DNA of 64,000 nucleotides from Pseudomonadota bacterium (GCA_021325025.1 JAJPHZ010000022.1:74646-138645); one strand, 5' to 3'; numbered from the stretch's first letter, positions 2,968 to 57,400 are shown. The notes: a model not told the origin generated them from the letters alone. Numbers and translations are program-made.

Positions 2968-3687
2968 ATGAAAGTGCCCGACACTGCACAGGTAGCAGGC
3001 GCGCCGCAACCCGCACCGACGGCCGCCGCCATCCAGGGGGCGCCGGTCGCTGAACCGGCAATGCTCATGGTGCGCAGCGCAGGAATCCGGATGCTGACCG
3101 AACCGATCGCGGCGGCGGCCCGCCTGACGGGCCATACACGGGTCCTGATCGCCGCCTGCCGCCCCGGCGACGGCGCATCGACGGTAGCCGGCGCCCTGGC
3201 CCTGGACCTGGCGAGCCGACTCGGCATCGACACGCTGCTGGTTACCGCCGACGGCGCCGGTGCTGAAAGCCCGGCCGCCGGCAATGGCCGTCCGGTGCGG
3301 ACCAACCAAACCGGTGTGCCGCATCTGTGGCTCGCGCGCTGTACCAGATCCGGCGAGCCGGCGCGCGGCGGCGCGGCTGACGGCGAGCGTGCCGAGCGCG
3401 ACGCCGTCGTCGAGGAGCTGCGTGCGATCATCGGGCGTTATCGCGCCGCAATCATCGACCTCGGCGTGGTGCGCCTGGATGCACGCATGCTGGCGCTGGC
3501 GCGTCCCGAAGATCCGGTACTGGTGGTGGCGCGCTACGGATGCACGCAGCGCGAGGAACTGGCCGCCACACTGGCCGTAATCAACGTGGCCAACGCCAAA
3601 AGCGCCGGCGTGATTCTCAACGGCTACGAAAGTCCGGCCGCCGATCGGCTGCCGTGGATTTCGCATCCGGAGCACGAAGGGCGATGA
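2968..3687 (+). CDS. Degenerate BY-kinase/MinD-like P-loop protein (predicted pseudo-kinase partner of the PCP)
   Basis: AAGGAG RBS 2962-2967 then ATG 2968. A Walker-A-like segment (VLIAACRPGDGASTVAGALALDLA) resembles BY-kinase SxxGEGKST but lacks the Lys. The Walker-B-like segment (AAIIDLGVV) lacks the DxPP signature. Confidence 0.55.
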   Translation: MKVPDTAQVAGAPQPAPTAAAIQGAPVAEPAMLMVRSAGIRMLTEPIAAAARLTGHTRVLIAACRPGDGASTVAGALALDLASRLGIDTLLVTADGAGAESPAAGNGRPVRTNQTGVPHLWLARCTRSGEPARGGAADGERAERDAVVEELRAIIGRYRAAIIDLGVVRLDARMLALARPEDPVLVVARYGCTQREELAATLAVINVANAKSAGVILNGYESPAADRLPWISHPEHEGR

Positions 3688-7064: not shown

Positions 7065-8560
7065 AACGGGAGGCCGCGCATGCTCCTCGCGCCCAGGCCG
7101 ACGACCGCCGGCTGTGGCGGGCATTCGCCCGCAGCGTGCTGTTCAACGTGCAGGCCGAGTTGGTTGCCAACCTGATTCGGGTGGGCGGCGTGATTTTTCT
7201 GGCGCGCGCCCTGGAGCCGCGCGACTTCGGCCTGCTGCGCATCCTGATCGTGCTCGGCGCGATCGCCGCGCTGATCGGCACCGCCGGGTTTCCCGAAGCG
7301 GTCATCCAGCGCAAGGAACTGTCGGGCGAGCATCAGACCACCGCCTGCTACCTGACCGCGGCGTGCGCCGGCGCGGTCGCCGCGATGCTGTTCGCCGCTG
7401 CGCCGCTGATTGAACGGCTGATGGCGATGGGGCATCTGGGTGCGATGATTCGCCTGCTGTGCGTGCCGATCTTTGTCGAAGGCACCTCGGCAATCCCCAA
7501 CGCCATCCTGCAACGCGCGCTTCGCTACGACGCGCTGGCCGCCGCCGACATCATCGCGGAGGGCGGTTTCGTCGCCGCCGCCGTCGCGTTGATTTACCTG
7601 GGGTTGCCCCGCCTCAGCCTGCCCGGCGGTCTGGGTGCACGCGCCCTGCTGCGCGGCGTCGCGATCTGGGCCGCGGCACGATTTGTTCCACGCGGCGCGC
7701 CCAGCCTGGGCGCCGCGCGCGAGCTATGGCCGTTTGCGGTCAGTGTGCTGGGCGGACAGACCCTGGTGATCCTGTCGCAAAACGCGGACTACGTGATGGT
7801 TGGACGGCTGCTGGGCGGCCGCGCGCTGGGCTTCTACGGCATGGCCTGGGACCTGCTGCGTTTCATCCCCGAACGCCTGTACCGGGTGGTAGGCCGCGTC
7901 ACACTGCCCGCCTTCAGCGCCATCTAGGAGCGGCAAAGCGAGCTGGCGCGCAGCTATCGCGCACTGATCGCGATGGTCGGGCGGATGCTGCTGCCGGCGA
8001 TGGCGCTGCTGGCGATCGCGGCTCCCAAACTGATTGTTACGATCTACGGGACAAAGTGGATGCCCGCCGCGCTGCCGCTGCGGCTGCTCACACCCGGACT
8101 GGCGCTGATCGGACTGCGCCTGGCGATCGGCTCCATCTACTATGCGCGCGGCTTTCCCGCCACCGACATTTTCGTCCACGGCCTGCGGTTGATCGCAATC
8201 GTGGCGGCGGTGGGGCTGACGGCGCCGCTGGGATTGGCGGCGGTGTGCGCCGCGATGAGCGCGGTGGAAGGCGCCGTGAGCGTGGCCGGGCAGTGGATCG
8301 TCTGCCGCATGATCAGGCTGGGTGCGTTGACCTTGGCCGCCGCCACCCTGCCGGGATTGTACAGCGCGGTGCTGTGTTCGGTGGTTGCGCTGGCCGGTGC
8401 GGCGCTGGCGGCGTGGCTGGCGGTGGCGGCGTGGCTGGCGCTGCTGGTGATGCTGGCGCCGGCGGGAGCCGCGTGGTGCTGGCGCGAACGCGCCACCGTG
8501 CGCGTGCTGTTGGGCGGCACGGACTTGCTCTCCAGCGCCGCCGAAGCGATGGGAGGATAA
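7061..8560 (+). pseudogene. Wzx-type polysaccharide flippase (MOP superfamily) interrupted by an in-frame TAG at 7925-7927
   Basis: ORFs 7061..7927 and 7973..8560 are in the same frame (both coordinate mod 3 = 2). Together they read as one typical 12-TM Wzx (...LPAFSAI*ERQSELARSYRALIAMVGRMLLPAMALLAIAAPKLIVTIYGTKWMPA...). TAG is used as a genuine stop elsewhere in this window (6394-6396). Confidence 0.55.
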
Positions 8561-14030: not shown

Positions 14031-14504
14031 ATGTGCAGACATCTTCTACTTGCCGCCCTGGTGCTGATGCCGGGATGCAGCGCGGTCAACTGGCAGAACT
14101 TCACCAGCTCTGCGCCCCAGCAAACCGTCGAGGCGCACCGCTTTGTGCTGGTTGACGCAAACGGTAAGCCGATCGCGGAATTAGGCGCGGCGCCGGGCGG
14201 TTCGGGACTGGTGCTGATGGATTCCACCGGCAAGCCGCGCGCCGCGCTGGTGCTGACCCGCAGCGGCGAACCGGGCCTGAAACTGTACGATCGCGCCGGC
14301 GTGGTGCGGGCGGCCCTGGTGGTCGCCAATGACGGCCGCTCGGGGGTGGCCCTTTATGATGAGCACAGCCGCAACCGCGCGGCACTAGCTACCAACCCTC
14401 AAGGCGCGGCAGCGCTGATGCTGTTGGACGGCGCCGGCCAACCCACCGCGGTCCTGCCTTCCTCCCCTGCACGCGGCACGCCGGCCAGCGCGCAATCAGG
14501 ATGA
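14031..14504 (+). CDS. Small secreted lipoprotein of unknown function with tandem roughly 17-aa repeats
   Basis: Lipoprotein signal MCRHLLLAALVLMPGC. At least five degenerate repeats of the form [LV]-x-D-x-x-G-K/Q-P-x-A-x-L (VLVDANGKPIAEL, VLMDSTGKPRAAL, KLYDRAGVVRAAL, ALYDEHSRNRAAL, MLLDGAGQPTAVL). Confidence 0.5.
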   Translation: MCRHLLLAALVLMPGCSAVNWQNFTSSAPQQTVEAHRFVLVDANGKPIAELGAAPGGSGLVLMDSTGKPRAALVLTRSGEPGLKLYDRAGVVRAALVVANDGRSGVALYDEHSRNRAALATNPQGAAALMLLDGAGQPTAVLPSSPARGTPASAQSG

Positions 14505-15692
14505 CCAACGCAGATCGGAATGCTTGGCGTGCTGCAAACGCGTGCCGCAGTTGCGGCATCCGGCGCTATGGCGCTCCAACAACGCCGAACACCCCGGGCA
14601 TCGGCGGCTCGTCGCGCGCACGAATCCATAGGCGCTCGCCGCCGACAACATCATCACGATCGCCATCGCCGCCGCGGTTGGAAGCGATGGGTTCGGGATA
14701 TCCGAAAAACTCCCGCTGATGGTCCAGTTCTGAATGTGTTGTCCGGCCGGCCGAATCGCCGGTGGCTCGGGAGCGACCGCGATCGAGGTTAGGAGTGAGT
14801 CGCCGGGATTGACGACCAGCACCGGTGCGGCCTGCTGAATCGCACCGGTCCCGTCGCGGCTGCGCGCCGGCGCCTCGGGCATCCTCTGATCGGGCCGTCT
14901 CACAACAGTTTGATCGGGCCGCTTCACAACAGAGGGAGCACGCGCCGCTTGCGGCATGGCCGGCGGGGCATCAGCAGCCAGAGCAGCGCGCCGTTGGGGC
15001 GGCGGGTCCGAATGCCGCGAACGTACCGGTGCTTCATCGGACTGATCCTGGTCGGTGGAGGTGGAGGGATGGTCCGCTCCGGTGCTGGAGGCGGCATTGG
15101 ATGATACCGACACGGACACGCGCGCGGTCGCATCTACCGCAGCCGTCACGCTGGGCAGCGCGGGCAGGCCGTTGACCGCCGAACTCAAGGCGGCGTCGGC
15201 GGAAGCAGCCACGGCGGCGGCCGCCGCCGCCGTGTAGCCCAACGCCTGCGCCATCCCTCGATCCGGCTGGAATGGCCCGACGCCCATTTGCAGGGCCGCT
15301 CTTTGCGCCGCCAGCGCTGCGCCGTCGGTGGTGCCGCTGACCGAATCCGTCGTTGACAGCGATGCCGTGGTACCACTGCCGCTGACATCGGCGCCGCCGC
15401 CGGCAGAGGTGCTGGCGCCGGCCGCAGCACCGCCGCTGCCAATCGCGGCGCCGCCGCTCGCTCCAACGCTGCCGCCGCCAACCGACAGGCCCGTGCTCGC
15501 ACCTACGCCGCCGCTGCCGCCAGGGGCCACGCCCGCCCCGATTGCAACCCCGGGCGCGCCGACACCCACCGACACGCCGCCCACCGCGACGCTCACGCCG
15601 CCAAATCCCAGGCAGGGCCAAGCGCCGAAGAACAACCCGGCCACACCGAACGACACCGCGGCAACCACCCTGATTATGCGCGCAAAGCTCAT
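14496..15692 (-). CDS. Gly/Ala/Ser-rich low-complexity membrane protein with a C-terminal CxxC-x10-CxxC zinc ribbon (unknown function)
   Basis: GAGGAG RBS 9 nt upstream of the ATG on the minus strand. An N-terminal hydrophobic segment is followed by a long GASV-rich region, a second TM helix (LPTAAAMAIVMMLSAASAYGFV), then CPGCSALLERHSAGCRNC. Only short ORFs lie on the opposite strand. High GC inflates ORF lengths, so confidence is moderate. Confidence 0.4.
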   Translation of the reverse strand: MSFARIIRVVAAVSFGVAGLFFGAWPCLGFGGVSVAVGGVSVGVGAPGVAIGAGVAPGGSGGVGASTGLSVGGGSVGASGGAAIGSGGAAAGASTSAGGGADVSGSGTTASLSTTDSVSGTTDGAALAAQRAALQMGVGPFQPDRGMAQALGYTAAAAAAVAASADAALSSAVNGLPALPSVTAAVDATARVSVSVSSNAASSTGADHPSTSTDQDQSDEAPVRSRHSDPPPQRRAALAADAPPAMPQAARAPSVVKRPDQTVVRRPDQRMPEAPARSRDGTGAIQQAAPVLVVNPGDSLLTSIAVAPEPPAIRPAGQHIQNWTISGSFSDIPNPSLPTAAAMAIVMMLSAASAYGFVRATSRRCPGCSALLERHSAGCRNCGTRLQHAKHSDLRWSS

Positions 15693-15874
15693 CGCCCGTA
15701 GCTCCTCAAAGACGAAAAGAAAGCCATCGCTAAGAGTCTAACCCGCAACGCCACGCAAAGGCGATGAAATTGTTGGGCGTCGAACTGGGCCGATTGCCCC
15801 CTGGCCAATCGCCATGCACGCCGGACAAATGATTGAAGGACAAGCCAAAAAGCTTGACAGCATGCCTTCCAACC

Positions 15875-15889
15875 AATAGATGAGTTAGG
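15875..15889 (+). promoter_or_regulatory. Conserved 15-nt motif TTAGGCAATAGGGTA abutting the rrf2 start, repeated upstream of yezD (16381..16395, TAAGTCAATAGGGTA)
   Basis: The two copies share 13 of 15 positions and both are preceded by short tandem repeats (CCAATAGATGAG / TAAGTCtagTAAGTC). This may be an Rrf2 operator and/or a shared SD context. Confidence 0.35.
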
Positions 15890-15898
15890 CAATAGGGT

Positions 15899-16357
15899 AT
15901 GTTATCAAACAAGACCAAATATGCTCTCAAGGCGCTTCAGGTTTTGGCCAAGGAGTACGGTCAGGGGCCGGTGCTGATTTCGGAAATTGCGCGGCGCGAG
16001 AACATCCCCGCCAAGTTTCTCGAGCTGATCCTGTTGGAGTTGAAAAACCAGGGCATTCTGCAGAGCAAAAAGGGCAAGGGCGGCGGCTATTTTCTTGCTC
16101 GTCCGCCCCAGTCGGTGAGCGTCGGCCAAGTGGTGCGGGTGATGGAGGGGCCACTGGCACCGCTGCCCTGCGTCAGCCGCACCTCGTACATGCGCTGCCG
16201 CGAATGCCGCGATGAACGCAGCTGCGGTATCCGTCTGGTCATGAAAGACGTGCGCGACGCGACCGCGAAAATCCTGGATTCCACCACCTTGGCCGACGTC
16301 TTGAAGCGCGTCGAAGCGGTGGTGGCGGGCCGGGAGGGGCTGCACTACTCGATCTGA
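15899..16357 (+). CDS. Rrf2-family transcriptional regulator (IscR/NsrR/CymR class) with three C-terminal Cys cluster ligands
   Basis: Typical Rrf2 N-terminus (KTKYALKALQVLAKEYGQGPVLISEIARRENIPAKFLELILLELKNQGIL) and Cys ligands in PLPCVSRTSYMRCRECRDERSC. Confidence 0.85.
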   Translation: MLSNKTKYALKALQVLAKEYGQGPVLISEIARRENIPAKFLELILLELKNQGILQSKKGKGGGYFLARPPQSVSVGQVVRVMEGPLAPLPCVSRTSYMRCRECRDERSCGIRLVMKDVRDATAKILDSTTLADVLKRVEAVVAGREGLHYSI

Positions 16358-16401
16358 AATTTTTTTGGCTATAAGTCTAGTAAGTCAATAGGGTAAATCG
16401 T

Positions 16402-16608
16402 ATGCGAGAAGAAGACAGCACCCGGACCGGCAACCAGTTGCCCGACCCCGATCAGAGGCTGGAGGCGGCGATCGCTGAAATCCGCCGCGCGATCAAAAAT
16501 GTCCGCTTCGGCTCAGTGGAGATCACCATCCACGATTCCCGCGTGGTGCAGATCGAGCGCAAGGAGAAGGTCCGCCTGGAGCCGCCCGCGCGGCTCAGAA
16601 CGCAATGA
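16402..16608 (+). CDS. YezD/DUF2292-family small protein
   Basis: The core FGSVEITIHDSRVVQIERKEKVRL fits the DUF2292 pattern (a ...GS[VI]E[IV]..HD.K[IV]VQIE..EK.R motif, recalled from memory). Length about 68 aa. Confidence 0.6.
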   Translation: MREEDSTRTGNQLPDPDQRLEAAIAEIRRAIKNVRFGSVEITIHDSRVVQIERKEKVRLEPPARLRTQ

Positions 16609-16755
16609 AGGGCGAGCCGTAGCCCGGCGAAGGCTCTACTTTTTGTAGATCAAGCATGTCCACCAGGCCGCTGGAGACGCGATGCGCATGGGGTTTGAGG
16701 AATCTGACCGGATCACCGGAAGCCTCCTCGTTGGAAACGAAAGGCAAACGAGGCG

Positions 16756-18204
16756 ATGGCGAGCAATCGGTGGTCATGGCCGCATCTGGCGGCGGCCGCG
16801 TGGCTGTTGGCGGCGGTTTCGCCGGCGTCGGCCCAGTCCACGGCCGCGACGGTGCGCGAACTGCAAAGGCGCATCGAGCAACTGGAGCGGCAGGTCCAGG
16901 CCCTGCAAGCGGCCAACCAGCGCAAGGAGCGCAGTCTTCAGGCGGTCGATCGGCGGGTTGAGGTGCTGGACCGCAAGGTCGAGGTCCAACAGCAGGCCCA
17001 GCGGCACATCACCCAGTCGCTGCCCAAGGTCGATTTCGACTACAAGGACCAGGGCGGTCTAACACTTAAGAGCGCGGACGGCGCCAATCGCTTCACGGTC
17101 GGCGGATGGTTTCAGGCCGACGGCCGCTATTACACGACCCAGTCGCCCGGCGCGGCAAGTACCTTTCTGATCCGCCGCGCGCGCCCCTTTTTGGAGGGGA
17201 CGGTTGACAACTACTACGACTTCCGGATGATGCCGGACTTTGGCCAGGGCACGGTCACGCTGCAGGACGCCTACGCCGACGTCCATTATTTTCCGCAGTT
17301 GCGCCTGCGCGCGGGCAAGTTCAAAGAGCCGGTGGGGCTGGAGCGCTGGCAGGACGACCGCTGGAACGAGTTCGCCGAACGCGCGCTGACCAATCAACTG
17401 GTGCCCGACCGCGACATTGGCCTGCAGTTCCACGGCAAGCTGTGGGACGATCTGCTCGAGTACCATCTGGGCGTGTTCAACGGGTCGACCGACGCGGTGG
17501 TCACGCCCGATTTCGACTTCAACAACGCCAAGGACCTCTTGGGCCGCATCTTCGTGCGTCCCTTTGCCCGCGTCCACAGCGAGGCGCTGTCGGGCCTGGG
17601 GGTCGGATTTGCCGCGACCTACGGCACCTCGGAGAAGAACATCCCGCTGGATACCTACCGGACCGCGGCGCAAAACGTTTTCTTTCAGTACAACAAGAAC
17701 GCGTTCGCGGCCGGCAACCGTTACCGATACTCGCCGCAATTCTATTACTATGCCGGCCCCTTCGGTGTGCTGGGCGAGTTTGTCTACAATTCGCAGGAGG
17801 TCGGGGTGTTCGATCCTGTCCTCGGCGTGCGCACCCGCCAGATTTCCAATTACGCCTGGAACCTTACCGGCAGTTACGTGCTGACCGGCGAACGGGCGTC
17901 CTTTGAGGGGATCAACCCGCGCCACAACTTCGATCCGCGCGCCGGCTATTGGGGCGCGTTCGAGATTGTCGCACGCATCGATCAATTGGTGGTCGACGAG
18001 GACGCCTTCAACGGCGGCTTCGCCAATCCGTCCACCTCGGCGGGATGGGCCCTGGAGTGGGGCGTGGGAGTCAATTGGTGGCTGTCGCGCCGGCTCAAGC
18101 TGCAAACCGACTACGTGCGCACCACCTTCCATAAGGGCGCGCCCAATGGCGGCAGCCGCACGCCAGAGAGCGCCTTTTTGCAGGAACTGCAGATCCTGTT
18201 CTGA
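16756..18204 (+). CDS. OprO/OprP-family anion (phosphate)-selective outer-membrane porin
   Basis: Signal peptide ending ASAQS, an N-terminal coiled-coil (ELQRRIEQLERQVQALQAANQ), then a beta-barrel region with family-like motifs (RFTVGGWFQADGRYY, FLIRRARPFLEG, FRMMPDFG). Confidence 0.7.
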   Translation: MASNRWSWPHLAAAAWLLAAVSPASAQSTAATVRELQRRIEQLERQVQALQAANQRKERSLQAVDRRVEVLDRKVEVQQQAQRHITQSLPKVDFDYKDQGGLTLKSADGANRFTVGGWFQADGRYYTTQSPGAASTFLIRRARPFLEGTVDNYYDFRMMPDFGQGTVTLQDAYADVHYFPQLRLRAGKFKEPVGLERWQDDRWNEFAERALTNQLVPDRDIGLQFHGKLWDDLLEYHLGVFNGSTDAVVTPDFDFNNAKDLLGRIFVRPFARVHSEALSGLGVGFAATYGTSEKNIPLDTYRTAAQNVFFQYNKNAFAAGNRYRYSPQFYYYAGPFGVLGEFVYNSQEVGVFDPVLGVRTRQISNYAWNLTGSYVLTGERASFEGINPRHNFDPRAGYWGAFEIVARIDQLVVDEDAFNGGFANPSTSAGWALEWGVGVNWWLSRRLKLQTDYVRTTFHKGAPNGGSRTPESAFLQELQILF

Positions 18205-18267
18205 GCCTTGGCGACCGGATTATCGCGCCCGAGCCGGCCTGTTTGAATCGCAAGGAGATAAAACCTC

Positions 18268-19161
18268 ATGTTGCACACCGAACCCGGTTTGATGGTCTTG
18301 TTCGCAATCGCGCTGGTAGCCGCTGCGGTCAACGGCGCGCTCGGTTACGGCTTTTCGTCGATCACCGTGCCGGTTGCGTTGTTGTTCTTCTCCAACCGGC
18401 TGCTCTCTCCCGCGCTGGTGTTGATCGAACTGGCGGTCAATTCGTGGATCGTGTACCTCAATCGTGCCAGCCTTTCGGGCGCGCTGCGCCGGGCAATGCC
18501 GATTGTGCTCGGCCTGGTGCCCGGAGTTGTACTGGGCAGCGCGCTGCTCAGCGGGGTCGATCCGGGATGGCTGAAATTGTGCACCTACGCGGTCTTGCTG
18601 CCGTTCATACTGCTTCAGGCGGCAGGGTTTCGCCGGCCGATTCGATCCGAAGCGTTGGTCGCCGTCCCACTGGGCGTCGGGGTCGGAACGCTGTACGCGA
18701 CCACCACCATCTCGGGGCCGCCGCTGGCCTTGATGTTCAACAATCAAGGGCTGGACAAGGACCACTTTCGGGGCGCGCTTGGGATCGTGCGGGTCGCCGA
18801 AACGATGCTGACCGCGGCGGCCTATGGATGGTTGGGACTGTATAGTTCCGCCAGCCTCCGTTTGCTGATCTGGATTGTGCCGGCGGTGCTGATGGGGCTG
18901 CCGCTGGGCGCCTTCATCGTCGGGTACGTGCGGGTCGAAACCTTCCGGCGGGTCTGCATGAGTTTTGACGCGTGGATCGTCGGCTTCGGACTTGCGCGAA
19001 CCATCATCGAACTCAGGCTGCTCGCGCCCCATGCGGCATTCACTGTTTGGTACGCCGCGATCGGGCTCGATCTGTATCTGCTCTATCGCTACTTCCTTGT
19101 TGAGCGCGCGCTGAGCCGGCAGGCGAGGGATAATGAATACTGGCGAATCGCCAATTATTAG
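18268..19161 (+). CDS. TauE/SafE-family (DUF81) sulfite/sulfonate exporter-like membrane protein
   Basis: AGGAGA RBS. An internally duplicated 4+4 TM architecture with family-typical G-rich segments (GALGYGFSSITVPVALLFF ... ISGPPLALMF). Confidence 0.7.
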   Translation: MLHTEPGLMVLFAIALVAAAVNGALGYGFSSITVPVALLFFSNRLLSPALVLIELAVNSWIVYLNRASLSGALRRAMPIVLGLVPGVVLGSALLSGVDPGWLKLCTYAVLLPFILLQAAGFRRPIRSEALVAVPLGVGVGTLYATTTISGPPLALMFNNQGLDKDHFRGALGIVRVAETMLTAAAYGWLGLYSSASLRLLIWIVPAVLMGLPLGAFIVGYVRVETFRRVCMSFDAWIVGFGLARTIIELRLLAPHAAFTVWYAAIGLDLYLLYRYFLVERALSRQARDNEYWRIANY

Positions 19162-19275: not shown

Positions 19276-19414
19276 AGCCGCTGAGCGCTAGCACTCGCGA
19301 AGTTTTTCGATACTCCGCTTGGCTCGGCAAACCGGCAGCGCGCTTTTTCGCCCGGCCAGCCGGATGCTCGGTGTTTTGGTCCGAATCAGAATCTCACGGG
19401 AAGGCAGCGATCAG

Positions 19415-21856
19415 ATGGCGAGCAGAAAAAGGCTGGACATCGGACATATCGTGTTGCGCTACCGGCTGGCGATTGGGCTGATACTTGTACTGGCCACGGC
19501 CTTTATGGCGTACGAGGCCTCGCGGGTCAAAATCGGCACGCGCTTCGTCGATTTCTTTCCGCAAAGCGCGCACAACGTGGAACTCTACCGCCGCTTCCAC
19601 CGCTACGGCGGAGCACAGACGCTGGCGGTGATGGTCCACGTCAAGCGCGGCGACATCTTCAACTACGCGACCCTGAAAAAAATTCAGGACATCAACTCCG
19701 CGGTCGACCGGCTGCCCGGGGTCAACCATCAGGAAGTCTTTTCGCTGGCCTCCTATCGGGTTGCGTATGCTGAGGCGGTGGCGGGCGGGCTGGATACCAA
19801 GCCTTACATGTATCCCAACGTTCCGGACACGCCGGCCGGCATCAACGCCCTGAAAGTCCATGTTTTCGCCCATCGCGATCAGCTCGCCAACCTGATCAGT
19901 CCGGATTACAAGAGCACGCTGGTCACCGCGTCGTTTAACGAGGAAGGGCTGGACTACAAGACGCTGTTCGATGGTATCGAAGACATCGTACACAACTACC
20001 AAGATCCCAACACGGTGATTTACGTGGCGGGCGAACCGGTGGTGCGGGGCTACGGCTACCATTACTTCCCCGTGATCGTAGCCATCTTCTTCGCCGCGAT
20101 CTTTCTCATGATCATCACCCTGTACTGGAATTTGGGTGATTACAGTTCGTGGTGGGCGCCGATTGTCACCGGCACCTGCTCGGCGCTGTGGGGCCTGGGG
20201 TTCGTCGGCCTGATGGGTTACAACTTCGACCCGCTGATGCTGGTGGTGCCCTTCATCCTGACCGCGCGCGACATGAGCCACGGCATCCAGTGGCAGCGCC
20301 GCTACTACTACATGCTCGGCCGGACCCACCATCGGCGCATCGCCTGCATTGCCACCACCAACTTCATGCTGCCCGCCGGGCTGTTGGCGATCCTGGCCGA
20401 TATCGCCGGCATCGTCTTCATCTCCTTCTCCGGCATCACCGTGCTGGACGACATCGCGCGCGCCGGCACGGTATGGCTGGCCGCCAGCCTGCTGATGGTA
20501 TTCATCTTCCAGCCCATCATGATGAGTTACCTGCCGCGGCCCAAGCAGAAGGTTCGCGCCGAGGGCCAGGGGCTGTTCGCGCGCGTACTGTGGCCGGCGG
20601 CGCAGTGGCTGTGCCGGATGCCGGTTACGCCCGGACCGGCCCGGACCGGACTGCTGCTGGGCTCGCTGGTCTTCCTGCTGGCCGGGGTCTTTTCAGGCGT
20701 GCACGCCCAGGTCGGTTACACCCATCCCGGCACGCCCCTGTATCGGCCGGGGTCCAAGGTCAATCGCGACATAGCGGCCATTTCAAAATATTTTCCCACC
20801 GACGAGGGATGGGTGGTTGTGAGCACGCCGGCCTATCCCGATGCGCAGTCGGTGCTGGGTCCGGCCACGCTGCGGATGGCGGATGACATGCGCGCTTACC
20901 TGTTGCGCGATCCGCGGGTGCGCCAGGTCGTCACTTTTGCCTCCAACGTGATTCGCCCCTTCAACCAGATGTTTCACTACGGCCATCCCAAACTGTACGC
21001 AATTCCGCAAAACACCCAGATTGCCGGCAACCTGTGGTATCTGTTTTTGGGCGGCACCGCGCCGGGCGAGATGGAGCATTACATTTCCAGCACCGCCGCC
21101 AATGACACCTGCATCCGCGTGCTGCTCTCCAACCATACCTATCGCACGCTGGACGACATCCAGGCCAAGCTGGCCGACTTCGTCAAAACTCATGTGGCAG
21201 CCAATCCCGGACTTTCCAAGGTCCACGTGCTCTACATGGGCGGCATCGCCGGCCTGTATGCGGCCGCCAACCAGGTGCTGTTCAACCTCGATTTCTACAA
21301 CATCAGCTTCGTGCTGGCGTGCGTTTTTATCTTTTGCGTGGTTGCGTTTCGGTCGCTGGTCGGCGGCATCCTGTTCGTCTTCGCCTGTGTGCTGGCCAAC
21401 TTCGGCGCCTTCATCTACCTGCGTTTGCGCCAGATCGGACTTACGATCGACACGGTGCCGGTGATTTGGCTGGGCATCGGCCTGGGTGTCGACTACGGAA
21501 TATATACCGTTTCGCGAATCTGGGATGAGGTGAAGGGCGGGATGAAGCTTGAGGAAGCGATACCACTGGCGATCTCGAGCACCGGCGGCGCGGTATTCAT
21601 GGTGATGTGCGTAATGATCGGCGGCATCATCCCCTGGGCGTTTTCGCCCGCCCTCTTCCATAACAACATGAGTGTGCTACTCGCCGTGCTGATGTTCCTC
21701 AACGCGGTGGCCGGCGTATTCGTGCTGCCCTCGTTCATCGCCTGGTCGAGGTCCGGATTTATCACCCGCTTTGAACGCGCGGCCGCGCCCGGACCGGTGC
21801 AGGGGGCGGAAGCGCAAGCGCTGGGCGCCCTGGGCCGCGCACATCGCGCAGGCTGA
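19415..21856 (+). CDS. MMPL/RND-superfamily (HAE3/HpnN-like) transporter
   Basis: About 810 aa with two TM bundles (each an N-terminal TM helix then a large periplasmic loop then five TM helices). The MMPL-like conserved region is GYNFDPLMLVVPFILTARDMSHGI. Confidence 0.7.
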   Translation: MASRKRLDIGHIVLRYRLAIGLILVLATAFMAYEASRVKIGTRFVDFFPQSAHNVELYRRFHRYGGAQTLAVMVHVKRGDIFNYATLKKIQDINSAVDRLPGVNHQEVFSLASYRVAYAEAVAGGLDTKPYMYPNVPDTPAGINALKVHVFAHRDQLANLISPDYKSTLVTASFNEEGLDYKTLFDGIEDIVHNYQDPNTVIYVAGEPVVRGYGYHYFPVIVAIFFAAIFLMIITLYWNLGDYSSWWAPIVTGTCSALWGLGFVGLMGYNFDPLMLVVPFILTARDMSHGIQWQRRYYYMLGRTHHRRIACIATTNFMLPAGLLAILADIAGIVFISFSGITVLDDIARAGTVWLAASLLMVFIFQPIMMSYLPRPKQKVRAEGQGLFARVLWPAAQWLCRMPVTPGPARTGLLLGSLVFLLAGVFSGVHAQVGYTHPGTPLYRPGSKVNRDIAAISKYFPTDEGWVVVSTPAYPDAQSVLGPATLRMADDMRAYLLRDPRVRQVVTFASNVIRPFNQMFHYGHPKLYAIPQNTQIAGNLWYLFLGGTAPGEMEHYISSTAANDTCIRVLLSNHTYRTLDDIQAKLADFVKTHVAANPGLSKVHVLYMGGIAGLYAAANQVLFNLDFYNISFVLACVFIFCVVAFRSLVGGILFVFACVLANFGAFIYLRLRQIGLTIDTVPVIWLGIGLGVDYGIYTVSRIWDEVKGGMKLEEAIPLAISSTGGAVFMVMCVMIGGIIPWAFSPALFHNNMSVLLAVLMFLNAVAGVFVLPSFIAWSRSGFITRFERAAAPGPVQGAEAQALGALGRAHRAG

Positions 21857-53623: not shown

Positions 53624-53718
53624 CTAGACTATTAGCGCGCGAGCTGCCCAGCGCCTGGAACGTGGACGGGTGCTGAGAGAGTCGCTAATCCCAGGCTGGC
53701 CAGCAAACAGAGGAGGAG

Positions 53719-54843
53719 GTGCGGTCGATCGGACCAAGCAAGGCCCATCCCACGGTTGCAGTGTTTTTTCCGTTGCTCGCCGGAGGCGGATTGGAGCGGG
53801 TAATGTTGAACCTGGCCCGCGGTTTGGCGCTGAAGGGCACGCGTGTCGACCTGGTACTTGCGTGCGCGCAGGGGCCTTACCTCCAGGCCGTGCCTCCGGG
53901 CGTCAATCTGGTCGATTTCCGTTCGCTCAGGGTAAGCAGGTCGATCCTGCGCCTGGCGAGTTATCTCCGGCACAGGCGGCCCGATGCGGTTATTTCGGCT
54001 TCCACCCACGCCAATGTGGCCACCATTTGCGCCAGAGCGATTGCGCGCGGCGCCACGCGCGTGATCGTCACCGAACATAACCCGCCGACCACGGTTGCTG
54101 AGTACAACCAGGACTGGCGTACGTGGTTGCTGCATAGGACCATGAAGTCGGCCTACCGCTTCGCCGACTCAGTGGTGGCCGTGTCCCGGGGTCTGGCCGA
54201 CGATATGGCACGCCGCCTTCAGTTTGACCGCGACAGCATAAATGTCATCTACAATCCGGTGGTGACACCTGCGCTTCTTGCCAACGCCGCCGAACCCCTG
54301 GACCATCCATGGTTCGGACCGGGGCAACCCCCAGTTGTTCTAGCCGTGGGCCGGCTTGAGCCGCGTAAGGACTTTTCCACCCTGCTGAGAGCGTTCACCC
54401 GGCTCAGGCGCGCGCGGCCGGCGCGTATTATGATTCTGGGCGAAGGCCCGGACCGACCGCGGCTGGAATCAATTGTCCGAGAGCTGAGGATTGAGGAAAA
54501 CGCAGCACTTCCCGGCTTTGTGGATAATCCCTACAAATATATGAAGCGGGCAAAGGTTCTGGTTCTTTCTTCCCGATCGGAAGGACTGCCGACGGTTCTG
54601 ATCGAGGCGATGGCTCTGGGAACGCAAGTGGTGAGCACGGATTGCCTGAGCGGACCAGACGAGATTCTCGAATGGGGAAAATGGGGAAAATTGGTGCCGG
54701 TTGGTGATGACCTTCAAATGGCCTCCGCCATCTGCGATATTCTCGACGGTCGAGCTCGCTACAACGTCGAAGACCGAGCATCGGCTTTCTCACTGGATAA
54801 TATCGTTGATTCCTACCTCGATGTGGTATTGGCCGGCAGTTGA
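53719..54843 (+). CDS. Family 4 (GT-B) glycosyltransferase
   Basis: AGGAGGAGG RBS then GTG 53719. N-terminus FFPLLAGGGLERVMLNLARGL. C-terminal GT4 core PVVLAVGRLEPRKDFSTLLRAF...SRSEGLPTVLIEAMALGTQVVSTD. Confidence 0.85.
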   Translation: MRSIGPSKAHPTVAVFFPLLAGGGLERVMLNLARGLALKGTRVDLVLACAQGPYLQAVPPGVNLVDFRSLRVSRSILRLASYLRHRRPDAVISASTHANVATICARAIARGATRVIVTEHNPPTTVAEYNQDWRTWLLHRTMKSAYRFADSVVAVSRGLADDMARRLQFDRDSINVIYNPVVTPALLANAAEPLDHPWFGPGQPPVVLAVGRLEPRKDFSTLLRAFTRLRRARPARIMILGEGPDRPRLESIVRELRIEENAALPGFVDNPYKYMKRAKVLVLSSRSEGLPTVLIEAMALGTQVVSTDCLSGPDEILEWGKWGKLVPVGDDLQMASAICDILDGRARYNVEDRASAFSLDNIVDSYLDVVLAGS

Positions 54844-55050
54844 TGCGTTCCTGCAGGATCGAGTAGCAGCGCTCCGGAGAAGTAGACTTGCGGAACCTAC
54901 GCGTAACGCCTGCAAGCAAGCATCTACGGCCGGGCTGGTCTCAATTGCCCTGTATCAGTCCGGACGGAGGCCGATGCGCTTTTCTATGAAAGGGTCCGCG
55001 TTACCTTTGGGACAGCAAGCCGCGCGAGTTGCGAAAGACGCTTTTGACCG

Positions 55051-56412
55051 ATGAACCCGGCTGGCATCTGGCTGTCACTGCAAAAACGCAGCGCCTTCGG
55101 AGCTAATGTTGCTCTGACGGCTGCGACTAACCTTGCCATCGGAGTGCTTGGTCTGGTCACCGGAGTTCTCGCGGCGCGCCTTTTGGGCCCGCGCGGGCGA
55201 GGGGAGCTGGCGGCCATCCAAACCTACCCGATGCTACTCGCAAACCTGGCTATGCTGGGAACCGGTCCGTCGGTGGTCTATTTTTCGGCGCGTGATCCCG
55301 AACGCGCCGGGCGCTACCTTGGCTGCGCGGCTGTGATCGCGCTGCTTGCCTCCGCGCCTTTGATAACCGGCGGCTACCTGGCGATGCCGCTGTTGCTATC
55401 GGCCCAGTCGCCCCAAATCGTGACTGCGGCATGCTGGTACCTGATCAACGTACCCGTAGTCGCGATCATGTCGCTGTGGCTCTTTGTGCTGCGCGGCCGC
55501 AGTGATTTCCTGCCCTGGAACGCACTGCGGATTTTGCCGACCCTGGCTTGGCTGGCGGTGCTGGCTTCGGCCTGGTTGTGCGGAATCAGAGACCCGCGTC
55601 GCGTCGCGGCGGTTTACCTTGCCGCTCTATTCGCACTGTTAATCCCGTTCGAATTGATAGTCAAAAGGAACGTGCCGGGACGATTCACGCCCGAGGCGCG
55701 TCAATTCAGGCCGATGCTCGCCTATGGATTGCCTTGCGTGGCTTCCAGCTTGCCAGTGGTACTCAACCTGCGTCTGGATCAGATGTTGATGGCAGGCCTG
55801 CTGGCGCCCAGCGAACTCGGCCTGTACGTAGCGGCCGTTGCTTGGAGCGGCGCGATTAATCCTCTGATGAACGCCTTAAGTTCGGTGTTGTTTCCGAAGA
55901 TTGCTGCGCACAGGGCGGAAGCGGACCGCTTCCGCAGTTTCTTGCACGGCAGCCGCCTCGCGGTTGTGGTCGCCTTGATCACGGCGCCAATACTGGCTGC
56001 AGCCACTCCATGGGGCGTGGTTCTATTGTTCGGGGCCAAATTCCGCGGCGCGATCAAGGCGGCGCTGATACTGGTCCCGGCCGGGGCGGTGTCGGCACTC
56101 AACAGCGTGATCGAAGAGGGTTTTCGCGGCCTCGGCAAGCCGGCCGCGGTATTGTACGCCGAACTGGCCGGGCTGTTGATGACGATTGTCAGCTTGTATC
56201 TGCTGCTGCGCCCCATGGGGATCATCGGCGCGTCGATCGCTTCTTTGGCGGGTTATTCGACCGTAATGATGTCGCTGCTGCTTCAGGCCCGCTGGCTGAC
56301 GCACAAGTCGCCGGCTGAATTGCTGCTTCCGAGTCCGGAGGATGTTGTCGAAGGGCTTAAGCGCTTAGCCACATTGGCGCGGAGCATGGTTTTGGTGATA
56401 TCGCGCGCCTGA
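55051..56412 (+). CDS. Wzx-type polysaccharide flippase (MOP superfamily), second copy in the window
   Basis: 453 aa, about 12-14 TM helices, with Wzx-typical loop motifs (LGPRGRGELAAIQTY; LPCVASSLPVVLNLRLDQMLMAGL). Confidence 0.8.
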   Translation: MNPAGIWLSLQKRSAFGANVALTAATNLAIGVLGLVTGVLAARLLGPRGRGELAAIQTYPMLLANLAMLGTGPSVVYFSARDPERAGRYLGCAAVIALLASAPLITGGYLAMPLLLSAQSPQIVTAACWYLINVPVVAIMSLWLFVLRGRSDFLPWNALRILPTLAWLAVLASAWLCGIRDPRRVAAVYLAALFALLIPFELIVKRNVPGRFTPEARQFRPMLAYGLPCVASSLPVVLNLRLDQMLMAGLLAPSELGLYVAAVAWSGAINPLMNALSSVLFPKIAAHRAEADRFRSFLHGSRLAVVVALITAPILAAATPWGVVLLFGAKFRGAIKAALILVPAGAVSALNSVIEEGFRGLGKPAAVLYAELAGLLMTIVSLYLLLRPMGIIGASIASLAGYSTVMMSLLLQARWLTHKSPAELLLPSPEDVVEGLKRLATLARSMVLVISRA

Positions 56413-56512
56413 AAGAGGTTGCAGCGATTTGCTGCCTGGCACGCCGCAACAAGCGCCTGGCCTGCTTGCGGCATTACGTCGGCGCGGATGACTTGTTGCT
56501 TTTACGAAATCG

Positions 56513-57400
56513 ATGGCGCGTAAACCGAATTTCTTCATAATTGGCGCTCCCAAGTGCGGCACGACTTCTCTGGCTACCTATCTCCGTGAACACCCAAAAA
56601 TATTCTTCCCGGCTCGAAAGGAACTGCTCTTTTTCAACACCGATATGGCGTCCCGGGCGGTCCGGTCCGAGGCCGATTACTATGGATATTTCAGTGATGC
56701 CCAGCCGCAGCATATTGCAGTCGGTGAAGGCTCAGTAACGTATCTATATTCCGACGCAGCGGTACCCAATATCCTGAAAGCAATTCCCGACGCCAAGTTT
56801 ATCGTGATGGCGCGCAATCCGATCGACATGGCGGTCTCCTTGCACGCGCAGCTTCACCGCCAGGGAGACGAAAATTTGAAAGACTTCGCGACCGCCTGGC
56901 ATGTGCAGGAAAAGAGAAAAAAGGGAAAGCGGATTCCGCCGCTTTGCACCGATCCGAGCCTTTTACTGTATGGCAATGTCTGCAGCGTCGGATGGCAGTT
57001 GAAGCGGCTTTACACTAGAGTTGCCCGGCACCGTGTGCTCGTCCTCTTCCAAGACGACCTCAAGCGCGACACCAGGTCGGTGTATCTGCAGACACTGGAG
57101 TTTCTTGGCGTGCCGGACGACGGCCGAACGGCCTTCGGCGTCCACAATACTCGCCAGCCCCGGCTCCGCTCGCAACTTTTTCAGGCCGTACTCCGCTCCA
57201 TCGGCGTTCTAAAACTGAGACTGGGTGTGAAACGTTCATTCCGCATCCTGCCTCTGATCGAGCGACTCAATGTTACGTCCGTCCGAGAGAGCGTGATCGA
57301 CCGGGAATTCAAGGTGGAGTTGGCGCAATACTTCCGCAACGACGTGGAAGAGATGTCCACCCTTGTAGACCGTGATCTGTCAGCGTGGCTGCGAGTCTGA
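56513..57400 (+). CDS. PAPS-dependent sulfotransferase (carbohydrate sulfotransferase-like)
   Basis: 5'-PSB motif FFIIGAPKCGTTSL at the N-terminus. A 3'-PB-like region (RNPIDMAVSLHAQ). Confidence 0.8.
   Translation: MARKPNFFIIGAPKCGTTSLATYLREHPKIFFPARKELLFFNTDMASRAVRSEADYYGYFSDAQPQHIAVGEGSVTYLYSDAAVPNILKAIPDAKFIVMARNPIDMAVSLHAQLHRQGDENLKDFATAWHVQEKRKKGKRIPPLCTDPSLLLYGNVCSVGWQLKRLYTRVARHRVLVLFQDDLKRDTRSVYLQTLEFLGVPDDGRTAFGVHNTRQPRLRSQLFQAVLRSIGVLKLRLGVKRSFRILPLIERLNVTSVRESVIDREFKVELAQYFRNDVEEMSTLVDRDLSAWLRV

Follow-up and report, generated by a model that had tools for sequence, protein, structure and literature searches.

Two predicted Rrf2 operators and a conserved leader RNA in a putative sulfate-acquisition operon of a Binataceae bacterium

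What brings an Rrf2-type regulator, a small DUF2292 protein, an outer-membrane porin and a TauE-type permease together in one locus of a Binataceae bacterium, and what controls their expression? The window, that is, the whole stretch of 64,000 nucleotides analysed, carries the four genes in a row on the plus strand: rrf2 (15899-16357; Pfam PF02082, E=1e-37, 129 bits, cutoff 30), yezD (16402-16608; DUF2292/YezD, PF10055, E=2e-17, 63 bits, cutoff 22), a gene for an OprO/P-family outer-membrane anion porin (16756-18204; Porin_O_P, PF07396, E=5e-23, 82 bits, cutoff 20.9) and tauE, encoding a TauE/TSUP permease (18268-19161; TauE, PF01925, E=3e-21, 77 bits, cutoff 32.6). These Pfam matches bear out the strand and the families given in a first-pass annotation of this DNA. 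The annotation also proposed a small sulfur or anion regulon under the adjacent Rrf2, which is supported by the conserved operator and the sulfate gene contexts described below. On sequence grounds, the locus is probably a self-contained sulfate-acquisition operon with two levels of control, Rrf2 operators and a leader RNA. The leader, located between yezD and the porin gene, was missing from the module as first annotated; its other parts are taken up where the results bear on them.

Both rrf2 and yezD had been described as preceded by a shared 15-nt motif behind short repeats. The repeats were found as claimed (CAATAG at 15874 and 15890; TAAGTC at 16372 and 16381), and both motif copies lie on the plus strand: TTAGGCAATAGGGTA at 15885-15899, whose final A begins the rrf2 ATG, and TAAGTCAATAGGGTA at 16381-16395, 6 nt 5' of the yezD ATG. 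The exact core CAATAGGGTA is present just twice in the 64 kb (15890-15899 and 16386-16395), against 0.01 copies expected, and two or more copies arose in none of 100 dinucleotide shuffles. Looser searches of the window were not significant alone, with 3 matches to the core at one mismatch against 0.70 expected and 2 matches to the degenerate 15-mer at up to three mismatches against 0.75 expected. The latter results, together with the position of each copy no more than 7 nt from a start codon and the AGGG within it, are what would be seen if the motif were chance or merely the Shine-Dalgarno-like initiation context of two adjacent genes. The annotation had itself named random frequency or a common Shine-Dalgarno context as the refutation of its motif; looked at in the 64-kb window, neither was upheld. 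The exact core is far in excess of expectation and the yezD-proximal site is singled out by an independent matrix, so that the shared motif is real. Bacteroidota do not rely on Shine-Dalgarno sequences. Because the AGGG of rrf2 is 2 nt from the ATG, too near for a Shine-Dalgarno sequence, and because the dyad to which the motif belongs is conserved in many phyla including Bacteroidota, at varying distance (10-60 nt) from start codons, the motif is not such a context. This reading is already largely refuted, and we consider it extremely unlikely.

The 15-mer is part of an operator, but not the functional unit; it is merely the 3' part (spacer and right half-site) of a 23-25 bp dyad with the consensus TTAGTCTAY-N7-RTAGACTAA. 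Operators were scored with a weight matrix built solely from rrf2-upstream sites of 26 other genomes; within the host genome the scan covered the 64-kb window. The operator 5' of yezD, Op2 (TAAGTCTAG-TAAGTC-AATAGGGTAA, 16372-16396), has a CTA-N9-TAG core centred at 16384. It scored 29.1 bits, far above all other positions of the window, the highest score among 100 shuffles being 17.6. The orthologous site is kept in all Binatia relatives and in other phyla. The rrf2-proximal operator, Op1 (TAGATGAGTTAGGCAATAGGGTA, 15877-15899), scored 6.9 bits (p about 0.014-0.04 for its 100-nt region). Its right half, AATAGGGTA, is good and abuts the ATG, whereas its left half, TAGATG, is also the -10 box, and the layout TTGACA-17-TAGATR-N9-RATAGGGT-ATG is kept in relatives with Rrf2 proteins 91-92% identical. 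Full dyads of 20-25 bits are present at the Op1 position in more distant Binatia and in locus L208; in the window and the closest relatives the cross-phylum matrix gave 0.4-6.9 bits. The autoregulation of rrf2 that had been proposed therefore stands only in part. It is plausible but weaker, since the window site is half-degenerate and shares its left half with the -10 box, and the low scores in the closest relatives imply that autoregulation here may be slight or absent.

The -35 hexamer of the rrf2 promoter, TTGACA (15854-15859, plus strand), is identical in close relatives (L081-L087), and a (c)TTGAC(a/t) box is located 16-18 nt 5' of the operator left half in Binatia and many other phyla. 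A strict consensus scan missed this promoter because its -10 box lacks T6. For yezD, a T7 run ending in TTGGCT (16360-16370, plus strand) is a candidate -35 (TTGnnn) with a T-rich upstream tract; a T6-T9 run, mostly ending in TTG, recurs 5-8 nt 5' of Op2 in Binatia, Geobacterales, Acidobacteriota and Flavobacteriales. The right half of Op2, TAGGGT, is a possible -10, and its position 7 nt before the yezD ATG would imply a leaderless mRNA. No yezD promoter passed the strict sigma-70 scan, the proposed spacer being 18-19 nt, and no intrinsic terminator was found between rrf2 and yezD.

Which protein recognises these sites? The dyad precedes rrf2 in many phyla, for example as TACCCTATC-N5-GATAGGGTA (L049), and lies 10-30 nt upstream of the rrf2 start codons. 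In 29 of 77 orthologous loci, the first 150 nt past the rrf2 stop contain a site that scores 15 bits or more, where 0.0023 per locus is expected, and the training set of the matrix had excluded sites 3' of the rrf2 stop. The two-operator layout occurs in at least six phylum-level groups. The CTAY-N7-RTAG dyads have the geometry of the Rrf2 family (about 23 bp, inverted half-sites, 7-bp centre), which is consistent with their predicted binding; operators of this size with a 7-bp centre are known from solved Rrf2-DNA complexes and from the Fe-S sensors of the family (PMC9338935). The dyads thus appear to be operators of the adjacent four-Cys Rrf2 and part of a sulfate-uptake switch. They could also be true operators of another transcription factor, with Rrf2 a passenger or regulating something else, as strong sites precede NifH-like, radical-SAM and URO-D genes in a Geobacter locus (L017), so that the regulon is not purely one of sulfate uptake. 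However, every site was found starting from rrf2 orthologues, the sites flank rrf2 on each side in 29 of 77 loci against a background of 1.5e-5 per nt, the size and symmetry of the operator suit Rrf2 dimers, and no second regulator gene is consistently nearby. Another factor is very unlikely on this evidence. With Rrf2 as the binder, a dimer would occupy each 23-25 bp dyad. Bound at Op2, between the TTG-type -35 and the -10-like hexamer TAGGGT, it would block transcription of yezD, the porin gene and tauE; at Op1, which overlaps the rrf2 -10 box and start site, it would exert a weaker autorepression.

The Rrf2 protein matches the full-length family model TIGR00738 with 118 bits (cutoff 73.3). 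It had been credited with three Cys ligands, but four Cys are conserved (C91, C100, C103 and C109; pattern CX8CX2CX5C), each in 79-81 of 81 aligned sequences (80 orthologues and the window protein). By this pattern it belongs to a distinct, widespread four-Cys clade. Its scores are under the NCBIfam equivalog cutoffs of CymR, IscR, RirA and NsrR (CymR NF047409, 84.5 bits against 195; IscR TIGR02010 and PRK10857, 69 and 56 bits against 208 and 275). CymR of Bacillus subtilis and Staphylococcus aureus, a member of the same family, is its best NCBIfam and near-best PDB relative, and is a master repressor of cysteine and sulfur uptake genes whose operators overlap promoters, as here. CymR has no metal-ligand Cys and uses CysK as partner and O-acetylserine as signal (PDB 2y75), whereas the present Rrf2 has four invariant Cys, and the operator consensus found here differs from the CymR box, TAAWNCN2ANTWNAN3ATMGGAATTW. 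The Fe-S sensors IscR, NsrR, RirA and RsrR likewise have a segment rich in Cys that separates the DNA-binding part from the dimerisation part, and their autoregulatory layout is common to this locus. Their Cys spacing is CX5CX5C(X2H), however, against CX8CX2CX5C in the present protein, the cluster of which is putative, and the spacing of the IscR ligands (Cys92/98/104 and His107) is not found in it. The Cys4 site could instead hold Zn or be a thiol switch. Among the neighbour genes clustered or annotated, none was an isc, suf, hmp or iron gene. In the literature, neither an operator nor a description of the Cys4 pattern nor an experiment was found for this Rrf2 clade. Naming of Rrf2 proteins by gene context reportedly includes a 'sulfate transport' variant. 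A link between Rrf2 and sulfate genes was earlier proposed from gene context, and one such name is quoted in PMC8557817; the Rhodococcus/mycobacterial group quoted there seems to be a different clade. A mycobacterial Rrf2 cluster is without conserved Cys, and several large Rrf2 clusters are given as uncharacterised (PMC9218516).

The sulfate function is suggested by the gene contexts. The closest relatives have rrf2-yezD-porin-sbp-cysTWA, so tauE stands where they have sbp-cysTWA, and the same rrf2-yezD-porin-tauE module is found in L208 with two 24-bit operators. Other loci contain Sbp, CysT, CysW, CysA with the CysA_C_terminal domain, and PAPS reductase/CysD (CysH/CysD), while DASS, TauE, Alginate_exp and other outer-membrane barrels are encoded directly 3' of rrf2 in other phyla. 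A gene for a PiT-type (PHO4) transporter is located just 5' of rrf2 in L021. Except in the Geobacter locus, the genes 3' of the operators are consistently for sulfate transporters or assimilation enzymes.

Export is the annotated role of many TauE/TSUP proteins, and this one had been called exporter-like. Import is more likely, because tauE replaces the ABC transporter of close relatives and because its orthologues adjoin cysS or genes of cysteine and methionine synthesis (cysK-like, metY-like and metX-like); in two loci (L039 and L043) tauE is directly 3' of rrf2. CysZ of Corynebacterium glutamicum, which shares the TSUP family with TauE, is a precedent for sulfate uptake (PMC5840216). TauE is thus probably an inner-membrane importer of sulfate or another sulfur oxyanion. 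An Rrf2-governed combination of O/P porin and TSUP permease seems to be without published precedent.

OprO/P porins are classically phosphate-selective. The present porin shares its Pfam family with OprO and OprP, channels for phosphate and pyrophosphate, whereas its own gene context argues for sulfate, not phosphate. YezD (68 aa) has no Cys and no internal Met, that is 0% sulfur amino acids, and the porin has 2 Met and 0 Cys in 455 mature residues (0.4%), against a window median of 2.9%. This low content may be taken as a signature of sulfur starvation. In Pseudomonas, the oscA operon is under CysB, not an Rrf2. Its order, oscA-sbp-cysTWA, places a small DUF2292 protein directly 5' of sulfate-uptake genes, as in the orthologous modules here. 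YezD has a near-invariant core, GSVEITIHDSRVVQIERKEK, and scored 64.2 bits against the cutoff of 85 of the NCBIfam OscA model NF033785, hence it is not an OscA equivalog. Still, it is not quite the functionally uncharacterised protein it was taken for, since OscA is a partly studied relative that is induced along with sbp in sulfur starvation and chromate stress (PMC2996968).

The module might serve another anion or the opposite direction, namely phosphate or pyrophosphate uptake, sulfite or sulfonate export, or the handling of selenite, tellurite or chromate. The Pfam names (phosphate-selective porin, sulfite exporter), the best NCBIfam match of the porin, a weak one to the selenite/tellurite porin ExtI, and the chromate sensitivity of OscA mutants point in that direction. 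We regard this as improbable, because orthologous modules contain Sbp, CysA with its sulfate-specific domain and CysH/CysD, tauE orthologues are beside cysteine and methionine synthesis genes, and YezD and the porin are poor in sulfur; moreover, an exporter and a substrate-uptake porin under a starvation-type repressor would hardly be sensible. For sulfate acquisition, we propose the following course. Sulfur shortage would take the repressor off the DNA, most likely because the Cys4 metal or Fe-S site is empty or modified, and the derepressed cell would make the anion porin, the TSUP/TauE permease importing sulfate or a related sulfur oxyanion, and YezD.

The yezD-porin spacer contains a tandem-hairpin leader RNA (16658-16758, plus strand), which follows yezD in 38 of 46 copies and is conserved across phyla. 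Nearly every time, its place is behind yezD and ahead of sulfate porin or Sbp genes. Unit A, the hairpin GUC-CA-CCAG-GCCG-CUGG-A-GAC (16658-16678, plus strand), is present in both the MFE and the centroid folds. In an alignment of 17 sequences, hand-picked by eye, 91% of its cells are paired and 6 of 8 pairs are changed on both sides, and the covariation score for these hand-picked sequences was reached in 0 of 500 shuffles. Unit B, AUCU-GA-CCGG-AUCA-CCGG-A-AGCCU (16702-16726, plus strand), contains CUGACCGG-N4-CCGGARG as its invariant element; among copies collected via rrf2 and not via the RNA pattern, 20 of 20 have ACCGG-N4-CCGGA unchanged. In the predicted fold of the expression platform (16722-16758, plus strand), GCCUCCUCGUU, which flanks unit B on its 3' side, forms a helix with AACGAGGC immediately 5' of the porin AUG (16756), so the leader is predicted to sequester the porin ribosome-binding site. 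The duplex between flank and initiation region is more stable within a locus than between loci (-10.4 against -8.9 kcal/mol; permutation p=2e-4, 49 copies). The window region matched no Rfam 15 family at E up to 5, nor did ten other leader-carrying loci at E up to 1.

If the spacer were conserved as DNA, as a second protein site or a promoter, the invariant and palindromic CCGG-N4-CCGG core would be expected, and the window leader folds no more stably than its shuffles (z=+0.8). Such a DNA site is nevertheless unlikely, since the element is strand-specific in 54 of 54 curated copies, the unit A stems covary, the 3' flank and the initiation region of its own gene vary together, and L042 has the element joined to a terminator whose hairpin is 13 bp long and carries a U-tract (z=-2.8). 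The leader, a conserved and hitherto undescribed RNA, probably adds a second layer of control to the operon.

The leader has generic traits of riboswitches: a conserved structured sensor, covariation and alternative expression platforms, the ligand being putative. As in riboswitches and protein-dependent attenuators, one sensor is combined with two platforms, mostly a helix with the SD/start codon and, in L042, a terminator, and the folds are predicted to be mutually exclusive. Its sensor is small compared with riboswitches, consisting of two CCNG hairpins of 4 bp that both contain a GA/A internal loop, and is without an Rfam family. Since folding of unit B and sequestration of the ribosome-binding site by its 3' flank exclude each other, a ligand or protein stabilising the hairpin would switch porin translation on. 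We tentatively suggest, as a possibility that is less than even, that the leader is either a riboswitch not described so far or an RNA switch under the control of YezD/OscA, gating translation (in some lineages termination) of sulfate-uptake genes, while in parallel the four-Cys Rrf2 reads sulfur supply through occupancy of its Fe-S or metal site. In that role, Rrf2 would be a master regulator of sulfate in many non-model phyla. An RNA switch operated by YezD/OscA would give DUF2292 a function. More copies of unit B were found in metagenomes, before porin or Sbp genes.

How bacteria control sulfate assimilation is well known only for a few model groups, through CysB in enterobacteria and pseudomonads and CymR in Firmicutes. 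From sequence comparison, one clade of Rrf2 proteins, marked by the signature CX8CX2CX5C and the operator TTAGTCTAY-N7-RTAGACTAA, appears to govern sulfate uptake. This clade is found in Binatia, Acidobacteriota, Geobacterales, Myxococcota, Bacteroidota and other groups, and many of its carriers are dominant soil bacteria. The system would work like CymR-controlled sulfur acquisition joined to an oscA-sbp-type operon. What appears to be new is the four-cysteine Rrf2 clade with its operator consensus, the repeated use of two operators per locus, the combination of an O/P porin and TauE in sulfur uptake, and a leader RNA, the last of which could be new in kind. Direct tests can now address the operator with its regulon, possible sulfate roles of the O/P-type porin and the TSUP permease, what the orphan YezD/OscA family does, and an RNA that is a candidate new regulator of inorganic sulfur uptake.

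In the window (GC content 63%; nearest genome relatives, Candidatus Binataceae MAGs), rrf2 (15899-16357, +) is followed by yezD/DUF2292 (16402-16608, +) and the genes for an OprO/P-family porin (16756-18204, +) and a TauE/TSUP permease (18268-19161, +). By membership the module is composed of Rrf2, DUF2292, Porin_O_P and TSUP, with no equivalog of CymR, IscR or OscA. The same module occurs in an unlike neighbourhood in another fetched locus, L208. The tauE gene is the last gene of the module; it is followed by a 250-nt gap with a terminator-like hairpin (19359-19372) and, in L208, by a gene on the opposite strand. An MMPL/HAE3-type RND transporter gene (19415-21856) lies beyond the gap and is outside the L208 module. 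Divergent from rrf2 is a 398-aa Gly/Ala/Ser/Pro-rich low-complexity ORF (14496-15692, -) without a Pfam match, which may not be a real gene.

The first-pass annotation reported a 15-nt motif shared by the upstream regions of rrf2 and yezD. Both 15-mers are at the positions it assigned (15885-15899 and 16381-16395). Their common core, CAATAGGGTA, has no third copy in the 64-kb window (0.01 expected), and two copies were reached in 0/100 shuffles; loosened versions of the pattern had no significance by themselves in the window. We fetched 80 loci with Rrf2 orthologues (52-82% identity, many phyla). In many of them a dyad is located 10-30 nt 5' of the rrf2 start, downstream of a TTGAC -35 box, such as CTCTAC-TAATTCG-ATAGAG in L014, TACCCTATC-CAACC-GATAGGGTA in L049 and TTAGTCTAG-CCACC-CTATCGACTAA in Binatia. 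A symmetrised 25-bp matrix (consensus TTAGTCTATCGAATCGATAGACTAA) was built from 26 rrf2-upstream sites with the window sites excluded; it pools phyla with unlike half-sites, TAGTC in Binatia and TACCC elsewhere. By this matrix the operator before yezD (Op2, 16372-16396, TAAGTCTAGTAAGTCAATAGGGTAA) scores 29.1 bits, against a maximum of 17.6 over 100 Markov shuffles. Because the matrix matches the whole dyad, the 15-mer is a real motif but only part of the operator, namely the 6-nt spacer and the 9-nt right half-site. The TAAGTC-tag-TAAGTC sequence, previously taken as a tandem repeat, is present and is read here as the left half-site and the adjoining spacer. The operator geometry (23 bp with a 7-bp centre) is the same as in solved Rrf2-DNA complexes (PMC9338935). 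When the 15-mers were instead taken as left half-sites with a downstream partner (centres 16393 and 15897), they scored only 10.4 and 3.4 bits. The second-best match in the window (55641-55665), inside a flippase-like membrane-protein ORF, is taken as a chance match, as its 14.3 bits are below the shuffle maximum. A polysaccharide-synthesis cluster with glycosyltransferase, flippase-like and sulfotransferase-like ORFs is located at 53700-57400. Directly 3' of yezD, the palindrome CTCTAC-TTTTT-GTAGAT (16634-16650) is operator-like with the wrong spacing (CTA-N7-TAG; 5.7 bits); it may be what is left of an operator, or a weak stem-loop.

Two operators per locus are recurrent. A site of at least 15 bits is found within 150 nt 3' of the rrf2 stop in 29/77 evaluable loci, against an expectation of 0.0023 per locus calculated from the remainder of the same loci, and none of these sites was in the matrix training set. 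A site before rrf2 is also found in 29 of the 77 loci, a partly circular count in that 26 of them are training sites. The rrf2-yezD spacers of Binatia are nearly superimposable (T-run, 5-8 nt, TTAGTCTAGTCAYCTAATAGGATA, 4-7 nt, ATG), and this layout is still recognisable in Acidobacteriota and other phyla. In the window, the rrf2-proximal operator (Op1, 15877-15899, TAGATGAGTTAGGCAATAGGGTA) is much weaker than Op2, scoring 6.9 bits (local p ~0.014-0.04). It has a perfect right half, and a -10-like hexamer 17 nt past TTGACA (15854-15859) makes up the left half. Since relatives with 91-92% identical Rrf2 retain the exact layout TTGACA-17-TAGATA-N9-GATAGGGT-ATG and L208 has a full dyad of 24-25 bits before rrf2, we take Rrf2 autoregulation to be ancestral and probably kept in the window through the half-degenerate Op1. 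At the rrf2 promoter, the operator would cover the -10 box and the start site. In four Bacteroidota loci (L057, L062, L072 and L075) the operator lies directly upstream of a TAnnTTTG box, the -7 promoter element of Bacteroidota.

A T6-T9 run lies directly 3' of the rrf2 stop and 5-8 nt 5' of the second operator in the window (16360-16366) and in about 20 loci of several phyla, and may serve as a -35/UP-like element or enhance translation as a U-rich tract. The run usually ends in TTG (TTGGCT in the window, TTGAAA or TTGGAC elsewhere), and the right half of the operator supplies a TAGnnT hexamer (TAGGGT in the window, TAGGAT in most Binatia, TAGAAT in L042), giving a proposed promoter spacer of 18-19 nt. 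A strict promoter scan of the window did not call this promoter. The hexamer is 4-7 nt from the yezD ATG in most Binatia relatives, except L001 (16 nt). A -10 box and a start site are separated by this same distance, and on that tentative basis the yezD mRNA may be leaderless. The T-run was rejected as a terminator of rrf2, as no hairpin was found between rrf2 and yezD; read-through into yezD is thus also possible. A consensus scan found an opposite-strand promoter-like site (16359-16388, -; TTGACT-18-AAAAAT) built from the operator and the T-run, antisense to rrf2, which is probably a coincidence. In L085-L087 (~7470-7530) the right half of the yezD operator is partly duplicated, CTAGTAACTAAATAGGGTT being followed by ACTAGTTAAATGGGGTT 5' of the start codon.

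The window Rrf2 falls under all NCBIfam equivalog cutoffs, the best being CymR (84.5 vs 195), and among solved structures it is closest to a Thermincola IscR-like protein (4cic) and to B. subtilis CymR (2y75). In an alignment of 80 orthologues and the window protein, C91, C100, C103 and C109 are kept in 79-81 of the 81 sequences, across all phyla. This signature, CX8CX2CX(4-5)C, is unlike those of IscR, NsrR and RirA, and CymR lacks it. The cysteines may hold an Fe-S cluster or zinc, or may act as redox-active thiols. In our preferred model, occupancy of the cofactor would report sulfur supply: by analogy with IscR, holo Rrf2 would repress and loss of the cofactor would derepress. Several large Rrf2 clusters were given as uncharacterised in a 2022 survey (PMC9218516). 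Our literature search on this Rrf2 clade, DUF2292/YezD or a sulfate-gene leader found only OscA and a RAST annotation name.

Genes in the fetched loci were called by a crude longest-ORF rule, with Pfam checks on representatives only. Downstream of rrf2 (and yezD), other Binatia and unrelated phyla have an O/P porin, a secreted beta-helix protein, and Sbp, CysT, CysW and a CysA that has CysA_C_terminal and TOBE_3 domains. Chitinophagaceae (Bacteroidota) loci have a peroxiredoxin gene and then PAPS reductase and CysD, Flavobacteriales a DASS sodium:sulfate symporter-type protein, Bryobacterales (L039 and L043) TauE, and others Alginate_exp or other outer-membrane barrels. In L021, PiT-type (PHO4) and PhoU_div genes are directly upstream of rrf2. 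Thus, in most annotated loci but not in L017 and L018, the first target would be a component that takes up sulfate-type oxyanions, and several transporter families are represented. L017, from an uncultured Geobacter MAG, has operator sites at 3297, 4261 and 7704 (23-30 bits), and its strong sites precede NifH/Mrp-like ATPase, radical-SAM and other genes in a cluster with a URO-D gene; sulfate uptake is not the obvious theme of this regulon. In the Chitinophagaceae and Cytophagales loci L056, L066, L073, L075 and L079 the first gene encodes an AhpC/1-Cys peroxiredoxin, and in L066 and L079 cysH and cysD come next.

The TauE/SafE protein was initially described as exporter-like. This label is probably misleading here, since the window tauE occupies the slot of sbp-cysTWA of its closest relatives, other TauE orthologues (67-68% identity) adjoin cysS, or a gene for a PLP-dependent cysteine synthase-like protein with metY-like and metX-like genes after it, and the sulfate-uptake protein CysZ of C. 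glutamicum is a TSUP member (PMC5840216). Two stand-alone TauE orthologues of this kind, next to cysS or to cysK/metY-like genes in L209 (4900-5000) and L210 (4900-4950), share the upstream motif AGACT..TAAGTAATCTATTCG, and L209 has an additional operator-like site of 18.6 bits, which hints that these genes belong to the same regulon via a variant site. YezD contains neither Cys nor an internal Met, and the 455 residues of the mature porin include 2 Met; in the long ORFs of the window, sulfur amino acids have a median share of 2.9%. Proteins made under sulfur starvation typically have such a sulfur-sparing composition. In one Binatia subclade (L002, L004, L005, L006 and L008) a secreted right-handed beta-helix gene (~6720-7710 in L002) lies between yezD and the porin gene, and in L081-L084 the porin is replaced by genes for 117-aa and 545-566-aa proteins without assigned function.

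The earlier account of the module did not notice a candidate leader RNA (16658-16758) between yezD and the porin gene. The spacer contains the element CUGACCGG-N4-CCGGARG (16704-16722), whose ACCGG-N4-CCGGA core is invariant in 20/20 copies aligned from the first 16 loci; these copies were reached via rrf2, independently of the RNA pattern. Besides the window, the element occurs in L001-L009, L014-L016, L042, L081-L087, L208 and about 30 metagenome loci, and loci with the beta-helix gene have two copies, before that gene and before the porin gene. The metagenome scan with a 20-mer gave many chance matches within GC-rich genes, leaving about 30 non-coding copies, every one of which is 5' of a gene for an O/P-type porin, Sbp (MRNW...LNVSYDVTREFY) or a secreted protein. 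A same-strand yezD ORF lies upstream in 38 of the 46 copies with enough upstream sequence; it ends 20-125 nt from the leader in 31 of these 38, and about 1 kb away, with one gene between, in the remainder.

The leader is composed of two hairpins. Unit B has the order outer helix (GCU/AGU), GA, CCGG, tetraloop, CCGG, A, outer helix. Unit A (16658-16678, GUC-CA-CCAG-GCCG-CUGG-A-GAC), about 35-40 nt 5' of unit B, has the same architecture with variable sequence. In an alignment of 17 unit A sequences selected by eye, 91% of cells are paired and both sides change in 6/8 pairs; this covariation score was matched by 0/500 shuffles, and slid controls collapsed. The 3' flank of unit B (GGAAGYYYCC) is complementary to the SD/start-codon region of its own gene (GUUCC/GGAAC, GUCUCC/GGAGAC, GCCUC/GAGGC, UCUCCC/GGGAGA), forming a helix that would sequester the SD. 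The mean duplex energy was -10.4 kcal/mol within a locus, compared with -8.9 between loci and -6.9 when targets were shuffled (p=2e-4 by permutation). Since RNAalifold, run on a plain MAFFT alignment, returned no helix other than the invariant unit B hairpin, covariation is shown by this permutation test and the focused unit A alignment. In the MFE fold of L003, unit B is opened and CCGGAAGUUCC pairs with GGAACCUCCGUGAUG. In L042 (Geomesophilobacter) the flank begins a terminator hairpin of 13 bp with UUUU behind it (z=-2.8). Because one sensor-like element is joined to two kinds of expression platform with mutually exclusive folds, the leader has the signature of a riboswitch or a protein-operated attenuator. 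Rfam 15 had no family match for the window region or for 10 leader-bearing loci, and we know of no described riboswitch for inorganic sulfur uptake.

The tight yezD-leader linkage makes YezD an obvious candidate effector of the leader, but the linkage could also reflect no more than a shared operon. No RNA-binding support for YezD was found by fold or sequence. A PDB sequence search gave no match at E up to 10. The AlphaFold2 model (55 homologues; pLDDT 74) has one helix (residues 16-32), with strands unassigned in the conserved core, and Foldseek found no match in the PDB, so the fold gives no clue. As the leader is GGA-rich, YezD was also compared with E. coli CsrA, and a relationship was rejected at 0.2% profile probability. 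A tblastn search with YezD against plasmids for annotated proteobacterial oscA loci gave one weak, uninformative Paenibacillus match. Among the cultured carriers of an rrf2 orthologue are Geomesophilobacter sediminis Red875, Geotalea SG265, Magnetospirillum molischianum DSM 120, Flavihumibacter petaseus and Deminuibacter soli, so the regulator is experimentally accessible; the leader was found in G. sediminis alone among cultured strains.
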